A stretch of 64,000 nt of DNA, taken from the NCBI GenBank assembly GCA_050246755.1, contig JBFWVL010000001.1, forward strand, positions 64,001 through 128,000, read 5' to 3'. Positions within the stretch are counted from its first letter, which is position 1. Every line of letters begins with the position of its first letter. The notes beneath the pieces are model-generated. The model was given only the letters and a program-made list of their open reading frames with translations. It had not been told where the DNA came from and did no database searches. The DNA comes from Bacteriovoracia bacterium. GTDB lineage: Bacteria > Bdellovibrionota > UBA1018 > CAIPTA01. The position numbers were made by a program, and so were the translations under genes. This document shows positions 30,966 to 44,226 of this stretch, piece after piece.

Positions 30966-31316
30966 TTTTCTCTCTCCATACATCAAAGATCCGTGCGCTA
31001 ACTCGCGGAACCTAACAAATGACGCATCGTTCCACAAGACATAAAACACAATTAGTCAACTTTTCTAAGGCTTTGCCTTCGGTCTGCATTCTTGGAGAGT
31101 TAGGCACATAAGTCAAGTTGGGTAAGGGATTATTAGTTCAATAAAATTAAATACTTATAAAGATGGGCCTTTATGGAAGCATTATGCCGGTGCCCAGCCA
31201 TAAGGGCTTCGATCACCCTTGCCCGGCAGAACTAAACGCCCGACACCTGCTAATAACTTCGACAATCAGGACGGGCAATTCGCGGAAAAATCTCCGTGAA
31301 TATAAGGATTTACCCC

Positions 31317-31332
31317 TGGCACGCGGGATGCA
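31317..31332 (+). promoter_or_regulatory. Sigma-54 (-24/-12) promoter candidate
   Basis: TGGCACGCGGGATGCA, with GG-N10-GC spacing. Confidence 0.65.
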
Positions 31333-31343
31333 TCTACGAAGAC

Positions 31344-31417
31344 AGCAGAGAGGTTAGCCAAACTTCCCTCCCCATCCCCCCCTCCCGAGATTTGGCTAGC
31401 TTCTCTGTTTTCTTTTA
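31344..31417 (+). ncRNA. Candidate small RNA: long hairpin, C-rich loop, U tail
   Basis: 17-bp stem 31346-31362/31391-31407 with two G-U pairs; 28-nt loop CTTCCCTCCCCATCCCCCCCTCCCGAGA; then TTTTCTTTT; starts at the predicted sigma-54 +1. Confidence 0.6.
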
Positions 31418-31607
31418 TTCTGAATATAAATAAATAACTATATATCTTGGTCGCGCGGAAAGCACTGCCACTGCGGGGACCGATCCACGCGGATCGAAAG
31501 TAGGTTTTCCGATCCGTCCAGCGACGAAAGCATAAAAATAGCAATGGGAACTTAGAAGCCTAATAGCCACCTCCGGGTGGCGAAAAACATTAATGAGCCC
31601 CGCCTCC

Positions 31608-31633
31608 TCACTGTTCTCTATGGAGAACAGTGA
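31608..31633. promoter_or_regulatory. Perfect 11-bp inverted repeat upstream of TIGR02147-type gene (operator candidate)
   Basis: TCACTGTTCTC-tatg-GAGAACAGTGA, about 50 bp before ATG 31683. Confidence 0.5.
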
Positions 31634-31682
31634 TGTTCACCATTTTCTGTACAACCCGCCCTCCGCGCTATATTAAGAGCGC

Positions 31683-32504
31683 ATGATTTTCGAGCAAACA
31701 AACTATCGTGTCTTGCTGAAGGCGGCCTGGTCCGAAAAAGCAGCTAAGGGGAAAGGCTATTCCCTGCGTAGCCTAGCCAGGAAGGTGGGCGTGTCCCCTT
31801 CTTTTTTATCCGAAATGCTGAACGGCAAAAAATCTTTGTCGATGGATCTTGCCTTCAAGATCGCCGTGAAGCTGGGCCTCACCGAAACTGAAACCCAGAA
31901 TCTCTGCTTATTGGCCCAGCTCGAAAACGAGCAGGATCCTGATTTCCGCTCCGAGATCCTAAAGCGCATCAACCATCTGCACCCTCGGAAGAAGACTCAC
32001 GACCTTTCAACCGACCTCTTCAAGGTAATCGCCGATTGGTATCATTTTGCCATCCTGGAGATGACGCATTTGCCGGGTTTCCGCTTGCGTGCCGAAAGCA
32101 TCAGCAAGAGCCTAAACATCTCCAAGATAGAAGCCGAAGTGGCCATCGAACGGCTGCTGCGGTTGGAGCTCCTAGAAAAAACGGCCAAAGGATCCTACCG
32201 AAAAACTCACGACTATGTTCTGGCGCAATCCCAAATTTCCGCCGGAGCCCTCAGGCAATTCCACCGTCAGTACCTCGAAAAAGCGCAGCTGGCCCTCGAG
32301 GCGCAGTCTCCCCGGGAACGCGTGAGTGCCACCGACGTTCTGCCGCTAAATTCCAAGTATCTGCCCGAGGTGGATCGGCTATCGCGGGAATTTTCTTCCG
32401 CCGTGCTTCGGCTTTCAGAAAAAACCGGCACCAAAGATGCCGTCTACGCCCTCGGAGTGCATTGTTTTCGCTTAACCACCGCCTATTCTGGAGAAAAATC
32501 ATGA
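31683..32504 (+). CDS. TIGR02147/DUF4423-type HTH regulator-like protein (paralog 2)
   Basis: YSLRSLARKVGVSPSFLSEMLNGKK HTH, F..IADWYHFAILE, IERLLRLELL, ALRQFH and VYALGVHCFRLT. Confidence 0.9.
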   Translation: MIFEQTNYRVLLKAAWSEKAAKGKGYSLRSLARKVGVSPSFLSEMLNGKKSLSMDLAFKIAVKLGLTETETQNLCLLAQLENEQDPDFRSEILKRINHLHPRKKTHDLSTDLFKVIADWYHFAILEMTHLPGFRLRAESISKSLNISKIEAEVAIERLLRLELLEKTAKGSYRKTHDYVLAQSQISAGALRQFHRQYLEKAQLALEAQSPRERVSATDVLPLNSKYLPEVDRLSREFSSAVLRLSEKTGTKDAVYALGVHCFRLTTAYSGEKS

Positions 32505-33554: not shown

Positions 33555-35072
33555 CTAGTCGTCCGTCGTCATCCCATCAAACTTCGCCGGACGATTGGTG
33601 AGCTCTAGGTCCTCTTTACTGAGGGGGGCCACGCTAGAACCGGTCATCATTTTCATGCCATCCGAGGAAACCGAAGCGGGCTTGCGCCAATCGCGGGGAT
33701 GCCACATCGTGCCGGTATTGAGGTACTTGCGGCTCGTGGAATAAATCAGCCCGCAGTCCCGGTGGTAAGAGATCGTGGGACAACCGCTCTTGGCGAAGAA
33801 GGCGTAGCGGTAGTCGAATCCTCCCTGCCCGCGCGCTTCTTTCCCCTGCGCCGAGAAGTACTTGAAGCCCGCCACTTTGGCGGCGTCGTACTTGGGCAGC
33901 TCGTTGGCTTTGATGTCGATATAGGAGATGAAAACTACCGCGTGGCCGGTGCCGTTTTCGCGGTTGATATTCACGAAGGATCCGGGCTGAAGCTCCGAGA
34001 AAGGCACGAGCTCTCCCATCCCGAACTGGTTCAGCGCGTCAGCGGTTCCGTAAGCATCGAGCTTAGGGTCTACCCATATCCGGGATTTAATCCCCGTGGT
34101 CGCGAGCGAGCTCCAGCTCTTGAAGGGCAAGTACTCGTATACCGAGCGGTCGCCGGTCTCTTCCGCGTAGATATCGTAGGCGGTGAGAATTACCTCGAGG
34201 GCCGCGGCCACGCACATGGTGAGGTTGCCGTAGGTGGCCTTCAGCGTGCCGAGACCACCGTAGTCGAGGTCGTGGGTATAAACAGCTTTAATATTATAAC
34301 CCAGCAGCCCATGCTCGGCGCGGATCTTGTCCACGGCTTTCAGGATATACCCGTTGAAATTCTTGGCCGCCGGCGGAGGAGCGGCTTTCGGCCACACGTT
34401 CACATTGTAGGTTTTGGTCACCACTTCGCTGCCCGCCGTCTTGCCCGTGAACCTCAGCTCGAAGGCGCCGTGGCCGGTAAGAATGGTATTGAAGCGGAAT
34501 TTTTTCTGGTCGCTCACGTATTCGGCGGCGCCCAGGAGCGTGCCGTTCTTGGAAACTTCTACCGCGTCGATGCCCGCACTCGCCACGATGTAGAAAAGCG
34601 CGTTATCACCGTCGGTGAAATTCTGCTGGTCCTTCAGGTTTTCCACGGTGAGCATAGGGGCCACGGCTTTTACCTCCACCTTATAGTCCACGCGCGCGAG
34701 CACCTTGGCCTTCGCGTCGTAGCCCACCACGGAGAGCGTATGCTTGCCGATCTGGGCGGCGGTGAATACCGTAGCCAGACTGAAGCTGGATGAAGCGCTC
34801 GAGGCGAGCACGGCGTTATCGAGAACTAAACTAATTTTACTGATAGCGGTGGCCTTGCCGGTAACCGTCACGTTTTTGCCCACCGTATACACGGCCGCGG
34901 GCGTATCCACCTTCAGGCTGGGCTTGGGCGCGGTGGGCGGAGGCGATGGTGGGGTTTCCGGCTTCTTCCCGAAGGCGAAGACCGGCTCGGCGGTAACGAG
35001 CAGAAGGGTGAGGGTGAGAAATAAAGTGGCGACGCCTTGGCTGAAACGTGTAGTACCTGTTTTCATATCCAA
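33555..35072 (-). CDS. Secreted protein with Ig-like repeats and a C-terminal papain/NlpC-like Cys-His domain
   Basis: Signal peptide, Pro linker and two beta-rich modules; TMCV...ELQPGSFVNINRENGTGHAVVF..FKYFSAQ. Confidence 0.6.
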   Translation of the reverse strand: MDMKTGTTRFSQGVATLFLTLTLLLVTAEPVFAFGKKPETPPSPPPTAPKPSLKVDTPAAVYTVGKNVTVTGKATAISKISLVLDNAVLASSASSSFSLATVFTAAQIGKHTLSVVGYDAKAKVLARVDYKVEVKAVAPMLTVENLKDQQNFTDGDNALFYIVASAGIDAVEVSKNGTLLGAAEYVSDQKKFRFNTILTGHGAFELRFTGKTAGSEVVTKTYNVNVWPKAAPPPAAKNFNGYILKAVDKIRAEHGLLGYNIKAVYTHDLDYGGLGTLKATYGNLTMCVAAALEVILTAYDIYAEETGDRSVYEYLPFKSWSSLATTGIKSRIWVDPKLDAYGTADALNQFGMGELVPFSELQPGSFVNINRENGTGHAVVFISYIDIKANELPKYDAAKVAGFKYFSAQGKEARGQGGFDYRYAFFAKSGCPTISYHRDCGLIYSTSRKYLNTGTMWHPRDWRKPASVSSDGMKMMTGSSVAPLSKEDLELTNRPAKFDGMTTDD

Positions 35073-35152: not shown

Positions 35153-35344
35153 TTACTTTACGTTGAAATAATAGAATTTGCCGCCGCTAGGATCATCGGA
35201 GAAAAAGCCTTCTTTCAGGCTGTCCCCTATCTTCTTTTGGAGACTCCCGAACACCGGACGCGCGAGCACGAAAATCATTCCCACCACCACGGCGAGCACG
35301 AGGATATACTCGAGAATGGATTGCCCACGCTCGTTGCGGAGCAT
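35153..35344 (-). CDS. Flp/Tad-type pilin-like protein (class III signal peptide)
   Basis: MLRNERG/QSILEYILVLAVVVGMI: G cleavage site, E+5 and Y+6, hydrophobic helix. Confidence 0.75.
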   Translation of the reverse strand: MLRNERGQSILEYILVLAVVVGMIFVLARPVFGSLQKKIGDSLKEGFFSDDPSGGKFYYFNVK

Positions 35345-35348
35345 TCCC

Positions 35349-36653
35349 CTAGAGAGGATAGCGCCGAAAAACTTCCTTATACGTATGCTCCACATATTCG
35401 AGCCCTCTTCCTTCCTGGAATACGGATTCGATCTCCCGCTTCTTCACATATTGTAGAACATCGGGATCGGCGAGCAAACGTTCTTTGAGCGCATCTCCGC
35501 CCTTCCAGGCCTCGAGCGCATGCTTCTGCACCAAACGATAAGCGGCATCGCGGGCAAGGCCGGCCTCCACGAGGGCCAGCAACACGGCACCGGAATAAAC
35601 GAGGCCGCGGGTATGCTGAAGATTCTCTTTCACCCGCTTCTCCTTCACGCGCAATCCTTCGATCAATTTACGCGAGCGCACGAGCATATAGTGCATGAGG
35701 ATGGTGGCGTCGGGACCGATCACGCGTTCCACGGAAGAATGCGAGATGTCGCGCTCGTGCCAGAGCGGAATATTCTCGAGGGCCGACTGCGCGTAGCCGC
35801 GGAGGAGGCGCGCGCAGCCCGTGAGATTTTCGGCGGAGATCGGATTTTTTTTATGGGGCATCGCGGAGCTGCCTTTTTGCCCGGCGCTGAACCCCTCCTC
35901 CACCTCGCCCACTTCGGTGCGCTGCAGGTGGCGCAGCTCCACCGCCATGCGCTCGATGCCGCTGGCGAGCAGAGCCAGGGCGGCGAAAAATTCGGCGTGG
36001 CGATCACGGGGAATTACCTGCGTGGAAACGGGCTCGGGCGTGAGTCCTAAGTAAGCGCAGGCCTTTTTTTCCACCGTGGGCGGCAAGGTTCCGTAGGAGC
36101 CCACGGCTCCCGAGAACATTCCCACCGAGATCGCTTCCACCGCGCGCGCAAAACGCTCCCGGTTACGCTGAAGTTCCGCGTAGTGCGAGAGAAAACGCAG
36201 GCCGAAAGAAAGCGGCTCGGCGTGAATGCCGTGGGAGCGGCCAATCGCGGGCAGGCGCTTGGTATCGAGCGCAAGCTTCTTCAGGGCTTTCGCCAGGAGC
36301 TTCGCCTCCGCTTCGATCAGCGCGGCCGATTCCTTCAGCTGCAGAGCGAAGGCGGTATCGACCACATCGCTCGAAGTGAGGCCATAGTGAAAATACTGGG
36401 CATCCTCGCCCACCAGCTTCTCGATCTGCATCGTGAACGCGATGATATCGTGCTTCACTATTTCTTCGTTGGCCTGGATTTGTTTTACGTTAACGCGGGC
36501 CTTGCTCGCGAGGCGCTTATAGGCCGCCGCCGGCATGATTTTCAGGTCGGCCATCGCCCGGCAGGCGGCGAGTTCCACGCGCAGCCAAGTTTTGTATTTC
36601 GCTTCTTCCGTCCAAAGGGCGGCGGCGGCCGGCAGGGTATAGCGCTCGATCAT
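35349..36653 (-). CDS. purB: Adenylosuccinate lyase
   Basis: MIERY, HYGLTSSDVVDT, GRSHGIHAEP, GSSAMPHKKNP and WHERDISHSSVER. Confidence 0.97.
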   Translation of the reverse strand: MIERYTLPAAAALWTEEAKYKTWLRVELAACRAMADLKIMPAAAYKRLASKARVNVKQIQANEEIVKHDIIAFTMQIEKLVGEDAQYFHYGLTSSDVVDTAFALQLKESAALIEAEAKLLAKALKKLALDTKRLPAIGRSHGIHAEPLSFGLRFLSHYAELQRNRERFARAVEAISVGMFSGAVGSYGTLPPTVEKKACAYLGLTPEPVSTQVIPRDRHAEFFAALALLASGIERMAVELRHLQRTEVGEVEEGFSAGQKGSSAMPHKKNPISAENLTGCARLLRGYAQSALENIPLWHERDISHSSVERVIGPDATILMHYMLVRSRKLIEGLRVKEKRVKENLQHTRGLVYSGAVLLALVEAGLARDAAYRLVQKHALEAWKGGDALKERLLADPDVLQYVKKREIESVFQEGRGLEYVEHTYKEVFRRYPL

Positions 36654-41983: not shown

Positions 41984-41999
41984 TGGCACGCTGATTGCT
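41984..41999 (+). promoter_or_regulatory. Sigma-54 (-24/-12) promoter
   Basis: TGGCACGCTGATTGCT matches the TGGCAC-N5-TTGCW consensus; 90 bp before ATG 42089. Confidence 0.8.
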
Positions 42000-42088: not shown

Positions 42089-43030
42089 ATGAAACAAGTG
42101 AAACTATTGATGGGAATTTCTTTCGCGGCGATTTTCGCGGCTCAACCAGTTCTCGCGGATTCTTCCGCGGCCGTTTCCACGAGTTCCAGCCCTTCGAATG
42201 CGTTCCTCGCCAACGTGGCTAAGAATTTAAAAGCCAGCTATCTCTTCGAATTGATCGGTCCCACCACTCAATCCCTCTCCGGAAATACCGACGGCAACGG
42301 AACTAAATTAAATATCAACCACTATGCCGGCCTCGGGTATCGCCTCGGCGGCAAGTGGAGCATCGGTTTCACCCAGCCCTTCTCGCAGAATATCGACGAG
42401 TACGAGCAAAATGGCCTCACCGCCGATGGCAGGCCGGCTCCCGACGCCTTCGAAGCCGGCGATCCCTACGTTTCGATCAATAATTCCCGCATCATGGGTA
42501 GCAACTTTCTCAACGCCACTGTATCCGGCCAGCTTCGCTACTACGCTCCTCTTTCCAAGGCGACGATCAACGCCGCGAACGACGCGAAGTCGACCGAATC
42601 GGGTAACGGAAGATTCCGCGCGCTCCTGAATCCCGCCATTTCCGTAATGGATGGAGCCATCGAAATCTCGGCTCCCACTTTCTTCTACTACCAGCTTGCC
42701 CGCCGCAGCGATGCGGAGCGAGCCGCCGCCAATAAAGGCAATCCTTCCCGCCGCGACTATCGCATCCTTCCCTCGCTTATCGTAGGCTACCAAGCCACCA
42801 AAGACGTGCAGCCCTATATCGAACAAGGCGTGCTCTTGAACCACTTCACCCACAATAATAACCGATTCTCCAAGTTCGATGATGCGAGCGACGGTTACTA
42901 CGTGTCTCCCGGAGCCAATATTAACGTGGGTAAAAAACTCAGCTTAAACGTGGCGGCCTACCTTGGCCCCTACGCTTTCAACGTGAAGAAGTCTTCGCTC
43001 TACTTCGCCGCCACCTACGTTTTCCTCTAA
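42089..43030 (+). CDS. Probable outer-membrane beta-barrel protein
   Basis: Signal peptide (..VLA), alternating aromatic/polar strands, C-terminal ATYVFL, own terminator. Confidence 0.7.
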   Translation: MKQVKLLMGISFAAIFAAQPVLADSSAAVSTSSSPSNAFLANVAKNLKASYLFELIGPTTQSLSGNTDGNGTKLNINHYAGLGYRLGGKWSIGFTQPFSQNIDEYEQNGLTADGRPAPDAFEAGDPYVSINNSRIMGSNFLNATVSGQLRYYAPLSKATINAANDAKSTESGNGRFRALLNPAISVMDGAIEISAPTFFYYQLARRSDAERAAANKGNPSRRDYRILPSLIVGYQATKDVQPYIEQGVLLNHFTHNNNRFSKFDDASDGYYVSPGANINVGKKLSLNVAAYLGPYAFNVKKSSLYFAATYVFL

Positions 43031-44058: not shown

Positions 44059-44166
44059 TCACGCCACGAGCAGTAAAGAACCTAAAGTGACCCCAAAGAA
44101 AACAAAGATCCAAGCCGCCGCGAGCACGAGTGCCGGACTCCAGTTCGTATTTTTCGTACTCTTCAT
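44059..44166 (-). CDS. 35-aa single-TM small protein (below the ORF-track cut-off)
   Basis: MKSTKNTNWSPALVLAAAWIFVFFGVTLGSLLLVA; AGGGAG 5 nt before the ATG; sigma-54 motif upstream. Confidence 0.6.
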   Translation of the reverse strand: MKSTKNTNWSPALVLAAAWIFVFFGVTLGSLLLVA

Positions 44167-44210: not shown

Positions 44211-44226
44211 AGCAGCGGTTGTGCCA
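44211..44226 (-). promoter_or_regulatory. Sigma-54 (-24/-12) promoter candidate
   Basis: Minus strand TGGCACAACCGCTGCT, with GG-N10-GC spacing. Confidence 0.65.

Follow-up and report, generated by a model that had tools for sequence, protein, structure and literature searches.

The stretch of DNA analyzed here (64,000 nt, hereafter the window) carries at positions 31317–31419 of its plus strand a long hairpin with a C-rich loop, preceded by a sigma-54-type box and followed by a U-rich run. The locus had been read, from its letters alone, as a self-contained gene for a small RNA (sRNA) that acts in trans. This raises two questions: (i) is there a genuine sRNA gene at this position, and (ii) if so, how would its product act? 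As judged by the comparison of related genomes, positions 31317–31419 (+) very probably represent a genuine sigma-54-type sRNA gene. For the second question, an sRNA gene acting in trans by pairing of its C runs with G-rich mRNAs, mechanism included, is the answer that we favor with moderate confidence.

Architecture of the element

The element is composed of the following parts:

31317–31332, plus strand: −24/−12 box, TGGCACGCGGGATGCA, with the −24 GG at 31318–31319 and the −12 GC at 31330–31331
31342–31344, plus strand: predicted transcription start, 11–13 nt 3′ of the −12 GC, placed by sigma-54 spacing
31344–31362, plus strand: 5′ arm of the 19-bp stem, as given by fold, alignments and RNAalifold
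31363–31390, plus strand: unpaired 28-nt loop, CUUCCCUCCCCAUCCCCCCCUCCCGAGA, with four C tracts (C3, C4, C7 and C3)
31391–31409, plus strand: 3′ arm of the 19-bp stem, pairing with 31344–31362
31410–31419, plus strand: U-rich tail, UUCUUUUAUU, which together with the stem forms an intrinsic-terminator-like 3′ end

The distance from the −12 GC to the start is well established for sigma-54 promoters, and counted from the predicted start to the U-rich tail the RNA would be about 73–78 nt long. The 28-nt loop is presumed to be its functional surface. Folded as RNA, the plus strand reaches −31.2 kcal/mol (z −7.32), and none of 200 shuffled sequences is as good; the minus strand reaches −22.5 kcal/mol (z −1.0), and 29 of 200 shuffled sequences are as good. 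Sequence and fold confirm the stem, the 28-nt loop and the U-rich tail that had been proposed for the plus strand. The accompanying claim of two G-U positions in the stem holds for the inner 17 bp and fails for the full 19 bp, where there are three wobble pairs (G31345–U31408, G31352–U31401 and U31354–G31399). A simple terminator scan of the window did not pick up the hairpin because the loop exceeds the 8-nt limit of the scan.

Open reading frames of 45, 64 and 92 aa overlap the element in the ORF list of the window. That none of these is credible, as first suggested, is borne out by the relatives, which conserve nothing beyond promoter and hairpin and have insertions and deletions in the loop. 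Within the window's own family (f1) the loop measures 25–28 nt and members differ by 1–2 nt, so that any reading frame would shift; a coding reading was rejected on account of these indels and of the absence of conservation outside the hairpin. Two further readings were rejected. A plain intrinsic terminator of a protein gene does not fit, as the upstream gene lies on the opposite strand and the hairpin has its own conserved promoter, and neither does a leader or riboswitch of the downstream gene, as in 24 of 32 loci that gene points toward the element.

Distribution of the element

The element is single-copy in the 3.55-Mb genome to which the window belongs (G000). When window positions 31150–31700 were used as a blastn query against 41 relatives, five genomes matched besides its own, four of the five from the same genus and one of another genus of the family, and every match was limited to query positions 168–285 (window 31317–31434), i.e., to promoter and hairpin alone. 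A first covariance model (R1), built from six sequences, found the element in 8 of the 11 genomes of the order and in 7 of the 8 of family f1, where the genome that was missed is a 430-contig assembly, 94% complete. With R1, more remote copies were detected in other families of the class as well.

A second model (R2), built from a 12-sequence MAFFT alignment, gave hits in 41 of the 127 genomes searched from the class (by family: f1, 7/8; f4, 24/75; f8, 4/10; f5, 0/19), all of the carriers being Bdellovibrionota-type MAGs. Promoter, hairpin and C-rich loop thus recur together in the relatives, where the sequence-only reading had suggested looking for them. Matches of R1 or R2 at L160, L161, L165, L171 and L172 were discarded as ordinary terminators or doubtful, and the doubtful hits G112b and G064 were excluded before the 41-sequence counts were made.

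Across a phylum sample of 151 genomes, R2 matched nine, five within the class and four outside it at 31–35 bits; the latter were left out of the membership. Two loci in another class, L263 (G168) and L265 (G161), have hairpins with loops such as CCCCCAACCCCCCGAU and score 32–34 bits with R2. No −24/−12 box is visible upstream of these two hairpins, which may be distant relatives or convergent.

Covariation of the stem

In the six-sequence alignment, 98.2% of stem cells pair and five pairs have changes on both sides. In the 12-sequence MAFFT alignment the share of pairing cells is 93.9%, with both-side changes in 15 of the 19 pairs; slid controls give 32–60% pairing, and the covariation score observed is not attained by any shuffle. 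RNAalifold, run independently on this alignment, returns the same 19 pairs with the loop left open. Covariation was judged from such pair counts and shuffles. Since the more distant members were gathered with structure-aware models, the collection is biased toward folding sequences; structure played no part in making the alignments, for which sequence alone was used.

The 41-sequence MAFFT alignment extends these observations and discriminates between the strands. Read as the plus strand, 749 of 779 stem cells pair (96.1%), 63 of them as G-U; read as the minus strand, 699 of 779 pair (89.7%), 13 as G-U. Slid controls give 25–45%. The better pairing and the excess of G-U pairs on the plus strand argue that the structure is selected in an RNA made from that strand. 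The covariation sought in relatives is therefore present, with 15 of 19 pairs compensatory, and the G-U bias favors the strand originally proposed.

Promoter and putative enhancer

A pattern scan of the window against TGGCAC-N5-TTGCW finds TGGCACGCGGGATGCA with one mismatch. Three instances of the box pattern alone are present in the window, where 1.6 would be expected, and three are reached in 26 of 100 shuffled sequences; the TGGCACGCGGGATGCA match by itself is not above chance there. The evidence for a promoter comes from the relatives. The family pattern, GG[CT]A[CT]-N4-6-NTGC[ATC] at 20–25 nt before the model start, is found at its fixed distance in 36 of the 41 members, and in 22 of these it lies at −21, which places the start 2–3 nt before the stem. 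Its GG and GC are invariant in the six-sequence alignment. The five members that lack it are G004 (TGGCAC-N5-TGGCA), G011 (more sigma-70-like), G125, G028 and G120. This conservation of box and distance, together with an rpoN gene in the genome, upholds the proposal of a sigma-54-type promoter. Genome G000 has one rpoN (a single Sigma54_DBD gene) and 27 Sigma54_activat matches, 23 of them at 150 bits or more.

Upstream of the promoter, the palindrome TGTC-N9-GACA (typically TGTCTAA-N3-TTAGACA) is present, allowing one mismatch, in 21 of the 39 loci whose upstream sequence is long enough, as compared with 1 of 31 downstream control windows. Twelve sites are perfect, and the sites cluster near −90 and −186, which is the layout expected of a putative activator-binding enhancer. 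The window itself holds a remnant of this motif:

31248–31264, plus strand: degenerate palindrome, TGCTAATAACTTCGACA, at about −90 from the model start

The remnant keeps the right half-site, has two mismatches in the left half, and agrees in position and right half-site with the sites of G001, G007 and G008 at −89 to −91. Because the window's own palindrome is degenerate, activation in this genome is less certain.

Elsewhere in G000, −24/−12 boxes with TGTCTAA-N3-TTAGACA-like palindromes 47–94 nt upstream precede genes for signal-peptide proteins, at C1:601739(+), C1:756013(+), C1:726044(−), C1:162966(+), C7:44712(+), C3:192429(+) and C6:208773(+). Among the proteins encoded behind these sites are a PilZ protein and two peptidases, a subtilase (Peptidase_S8) and a trypsin-like one. 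We regard these genes as a candidate regulon of one enhancer-binding activator, which would also include the sRNA of the relatives. The RNA would be tied to a sigma-54/activator circuit under whose control, in the window's genome, there also appear to be secreted proteases and further proteins destined for export. A possible activator is PilR, which we take to bind TGTC sites; a literature search gave no support for PilR as a TGTC-binding activator.

Loop and 3′ tail across members

The loops of the 41 members are 25–42 nt long; C makes up 53% of their bases and G 7%. Counting C tracts of 3 nt or longer, 4 loops have two, 24 have three and 13 have four, so that 37 of 41 loops have three or more. 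In family f1 the loop is almost invariant over its full length and the stems have diverged. The loop sequence is lineage-specific (CCCCUCCCC in f1 versus CCCCCUAACCCCC in f4), the f4 loop being roughly CCCCC-UAA-CCCCC-UAAnGU-CCCC. The loop had been described as anti-Shine-Dalgarno-like. This is apt for the window's own family and does not extend to the class, where the anti-SD core CCUCC occurs in 9 of 41 loops as against C tracts in 41 of 41; the conserved feature is the tracts themselves and not a likeness to the 3′ end of the 16S rRNA.

The 3′ tail is more variable. At least six T in the 10 nt after the stem are found in 14 of 41 members, the window included. In many f4 members these 10 nt are C-rich and a U run lies inside the 3′ arm, which makes their 3′ ends uncertain.

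Relation to known RNAs

Rfam 15 gave no match at the gathering score over the whole window. For positions 31250–31480 with E values up to 10, only miRNA-type hairpin models were returned, the best at 25.1 bits against a cut-off of 100; the Rfam check proposed at the outset thus matched no known family. Literature searches returned no description of this RNA.

Several sigma-54-dependent sRNAs are known, among them Qrr, GlmY, CrcZ and NrsZ. They resemble the window RNA in having their own −24/−12 promoter. Each also has an upstream activator site, which is only putative for the window RNA, and serves as the riboregulatory branch of the regulon of an enhancer-binding protein. They are not known to share sequence, structure or a C-tract loop with it.

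In design, the closest analogue is RepG of Helicobacter pylori (Regulator of polymeric G-repeats), which is reported to have its seed in the loop of a terminator hairpin: the C/U-rich loop pairs with the leader of an mRNA at a G repeat (PMC8295292). RepG has two stem-loops as opposed to the single hairpin found here, there is no sequence or covariance-model relation between the two, and the genome of the window offers no convincing site of the RepG type, i.e., a G repeat in an mRNA leader. To our knowledge, no sigma-54 promoter has been reported for RepG.

The sRNA sX13 of Xanthomonas is described as repressing mRNAs that have GGGG near the start codon by means of 4C/5C loops and independently of Hfq (PMC3771888); like the window RNA, it carries several redundant C motifs per molecule. 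These motifs reside in three separate stem-loops, whereas here a single hairpin exposes one large multi-tract loop. sX13 also belongs to another lineage and is not known to have a promoter of the sigma-54 type assigned to the window RNA, which no Rfam model matches.

For 6C RNA (RF01066; Mycobacterium and Streptomyces B11), pairing of the C-rich loops with G-rich ribosome-binding sites is reported to need no chaperone, and the organisms concerned lack Hfq (PMC6486639). 6C RNA is actinobacterial and presents its two C-rich loops on separate hairpins, in contrast to the single hairpin of the window RNA, and the RF01066 model had no match in the window at the gathering score or at E values up to 10. 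For Bdellovibrio itself, a transcriptome study describes attack-phase sRNAs of FliA type, with no homologues elsewhere (PMC3627812).

Our verdict is that the element represents an uncatalogued RNA family, and that the kind to which it belongs, the C-rich-loop riboregulators, is already known from RepG, sX13 and 6C. For this family a promoter, an enhancer-like motif, a structure and a phylogenetic range can be given, within a Bdellovibrionota class represented by metagenomes only, for which no riboregulator has been described so far.

Target searches

A duplex scan for targets of the loop returned best sites that lie mostly inside coding regions. Genome-wide, 10-mers complementary to the loop number 115 compared with 89 for the reversed control and are not more frequent. 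Of 22 G runs of at least 8 nt in the genome, none is convincing as a target. The leaders of nine sigma-54 genes that have the palindrome and look co-regulated contain no G-rich site, and the leader of the neighboring small ORF contains no conserved site. In five genomes of f3, f4 and f11, a 13-nt complement to two C tracts has no perfect occurrence outside the sRNA genes, and sites with one mismatch are at control level. A search of public runs for the locus gave eight metagenome runs of DNA type and no RNA run.

Two G-rich ribosome-binding sites in the window had been put forward as possible targets behind sigma-54-type promoters. The boxes concerned precede genes for signal-peptide proteins:

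41984–41999, plus strand: further −24/−12 box
44211–44226, minus strand: further −24/−12 box

The ribosome-binding sites exist (GGGGGA for the gene whose ATG is at 42089, GAGGGCAGGGAG for the minus-strand gene with its ATG at 44166); as evidence for targets they fall short, the complementarity being only 6–8 nt. A single lead came from another genome: an ECF sigma gene of G035 (L279, ~1501–1519) carries at its ribosome-binding site, 3 nt before the ATG, GGGGGUAAGGGGG / GGGGGTAAGGGGG, complementary at 12 of 13 positions to the loop of the same genome; five other genomes gave no orthologue of this gene at E ≤ 1e-10. The same genome, at L271 near position 1500, has an intergenic run of GGGGG-ATTA repeats after a terminator-like hairpin.

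Proposed mode of action

We propose that the sigma-54 form of RNA polymerase, aided by an activator of the enhancer-binding type, would start at about 31342–31344 and produce an RNA of some 75 nt consisting almost entirely of a single long terminator hairpin (a 19-bp stem with its U tail). Its 28-nt loop would display three to four C runs, and these would pair in trans, without Hfq, with G-rich stretches of mRNAs, either ribosome-binding sites or leaders, and so change translation or stability of the mRNAs. No match to Hfq was found in genome G000 (95.7% completeness), as would be expected with GC-driven pairing. Pairing in trans is rated the most likely mode because the element is a free-standing terminator hairpin with C runs, no Hfq was found and the design is a known one. 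A role as a sponge, also raised in the sequence-only reading, may apply as well. Such an RNA would offer a way into post-transcriptional regulation among relatives of predatory bacteria in which Hfq is apparently missing.

A second way in which the C tracts could act is by titration of a protein. Rho prefers C-rich, G-poor RNA, and the GGA repeats of CsrB and RsmZ titrate CsrA; by analogy, the loop could be a decoy that sequesters a protein binding C-rich single-stranded RNA, such as Rho or a KH-domain protein. Across the family, how many C tracts there are and how long they are stays constant, whereas no unique seed is kept, and the searches for mRNA targets found none, both of which would suit a decoy; short repeated motifs separated by variable spacers would fit a titrating RNA as well as a pairing one. 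We nevertheless consider it doubtful, because the near-invariance of the f1 loop throughout is more typical of a base-pairing seed and because the known sRNAs with C-rich loops are reported to act by pairing (PMC8295292, PMC3771888, PMC6486639). The most provocative form of the idea, a sigma-54-controlled decoy that soaks up the C-binding termination factor Rho, is quite unlikely; if true, the activating signal would relax Rho-dependent termination genome-wide in Hfq-less, predator-related bacteria.

Genomic context

The neighborhood of the element bears on whether it depends on the genes around it. Downstream, purB (adenylosuccinate lyase; Lyase_1 and ADSL_C domains) converges on the RNA in 24 of 32 loci. 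Upstream, a gene for an outer-membrane beta-barrel protein (PF13505) is divergent in 20 of 32 loci, for example at L170:1–1089 (−), and in 11 of the 17 such loci inspected its upstream region has a −24/−12 box of its own. The intergenic regions between the PF13505 gene and the sRNA share palindromes. The relatives from family f1 have, in the space separating purB from the RNA, a small Flp-like ORF (...RGQGFLEY...NFYYFPLK) whose stop codon is 11–35 nt from the 3′ end of the RNA. The window departs from this arrangement, in that an insertion of 3.7 kb parts the RNA from its usual neighbors:

31683–32504, plus strand: HTH_3/DUF4423 gene, between the RNA and the small ORF
33555–35072, minus strand: gene for a Big_7 protein, between the RNA and the small ORF
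35153–35395, minus strand: Flp-like small ORF of 80 aa (MWSIRIRK...RGQSILEY...KFYYFNVK), matched by Flp1_like only at E 0.0035
35352–36653, minus strand: purB, with the small ORF directly after it

The convergent arrangement suggests another reading, namely that the RNA regulates the operon of purB and the small ORF in cis, as an antisense or convergent transcript, by duplex formation or by polymerase collision. With purB convergent downstream and the small ORF in between in the relatives of the family, read-through of the operon would supply a perfectly complementary partner, since the stop of the small ORF is only 11–35 nt away, and the sequence leaves no visible room for a separate terminator. 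In f4, moreover, the stems are flanked on both sides by A and U tracts, so that termination in both directions is possible. Although this reading is plausible in the relatives, it cannot apply in the window's genome, where the small ORF and purB are 3.7 kb away with other genes between and promoter, stem and loop are intact. The hairpin is also weak on the minus strand, with 13 wobble pairs in the alignment as against 63 on the plus strand, and cis regulation would not need a strongly conserved loop sequence. Taken together, we regard regulation in cis as unlikely.

That the RNA gene is intact despite the 3.7-kb rearrangement argues instead that it does not depend on overlap with its neighbors. 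With its own conserved promoter and, in most relatives, a convergent downstream gene, the element is self-contained, as had been proposed, and the trans-acting sRNA remains the reading that we prefer.

A DNA-level element, with GGGAGGGGGGGATGGGGAGGG on the minus strand forming a G-quadruplex or the plus strand an i-motif and the promoter merely opening the duplex, is highly improbable: the window and its family do have four C/G tracts of at least 3 nt with spacers of 1–2 nt, but four tracts are present in just 13 of 41 members (three in 24, two in 4), and such an element would not need RNA-type covariation with a G-U bias in the flanking stem. A functionless chance hairpin or orphan terminator beside a chance −24/−12 match, to which the box frequency in the window alone would lend itself, is barely credible given that several families of the class have kept the box, its distance, the compensated stem and the loop alike.

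Occurrence in public records

Searches of public contigs with sequence patterns were dominated by unrelated loci. Among the matches listed for a loose loop pattern, most belong to a REP-like repeat, unrelated to the element, that is found in Geobacter and in betaproteobacterial MAGs. This repeat, CCCCATCCCCCTCCCRACCTCCCCCTTGAAGGGGGAGG, is often accompanied by its inverse, GGGGTGGGGATGGGG, ~40–60 nt upstream and occurs several times per genome (e.g., L015, L019, L028 and L055); we rejected the Geobacter-type repeat, including its copies in betaproteobacterial MAGs, as a relative of the sRNA. A tighter loop pattern gave 23 loci, five of them true and corresponding to genomes G001–G004 and G007. 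The stem pattern, which is palindromic, gave 66 loci, of which R2 confirms 11: ten in Bdellovibrionota-type MAGs and one in Saprospiraceae, the latter rejected as being at chance level.

No cultured carrier was present among the genomes and records searched. The named records with copies confirmed by R2 are MAGs labelled Bdellovibrionales, Bacteriovoracaceae, Oligoflexia or Bdellovibrionota. One genome, G066, has two copies of the sRNA gene (L192 and L281; public loci L196/L207), whose promoters are identical and whose loops differ in C-tract length.
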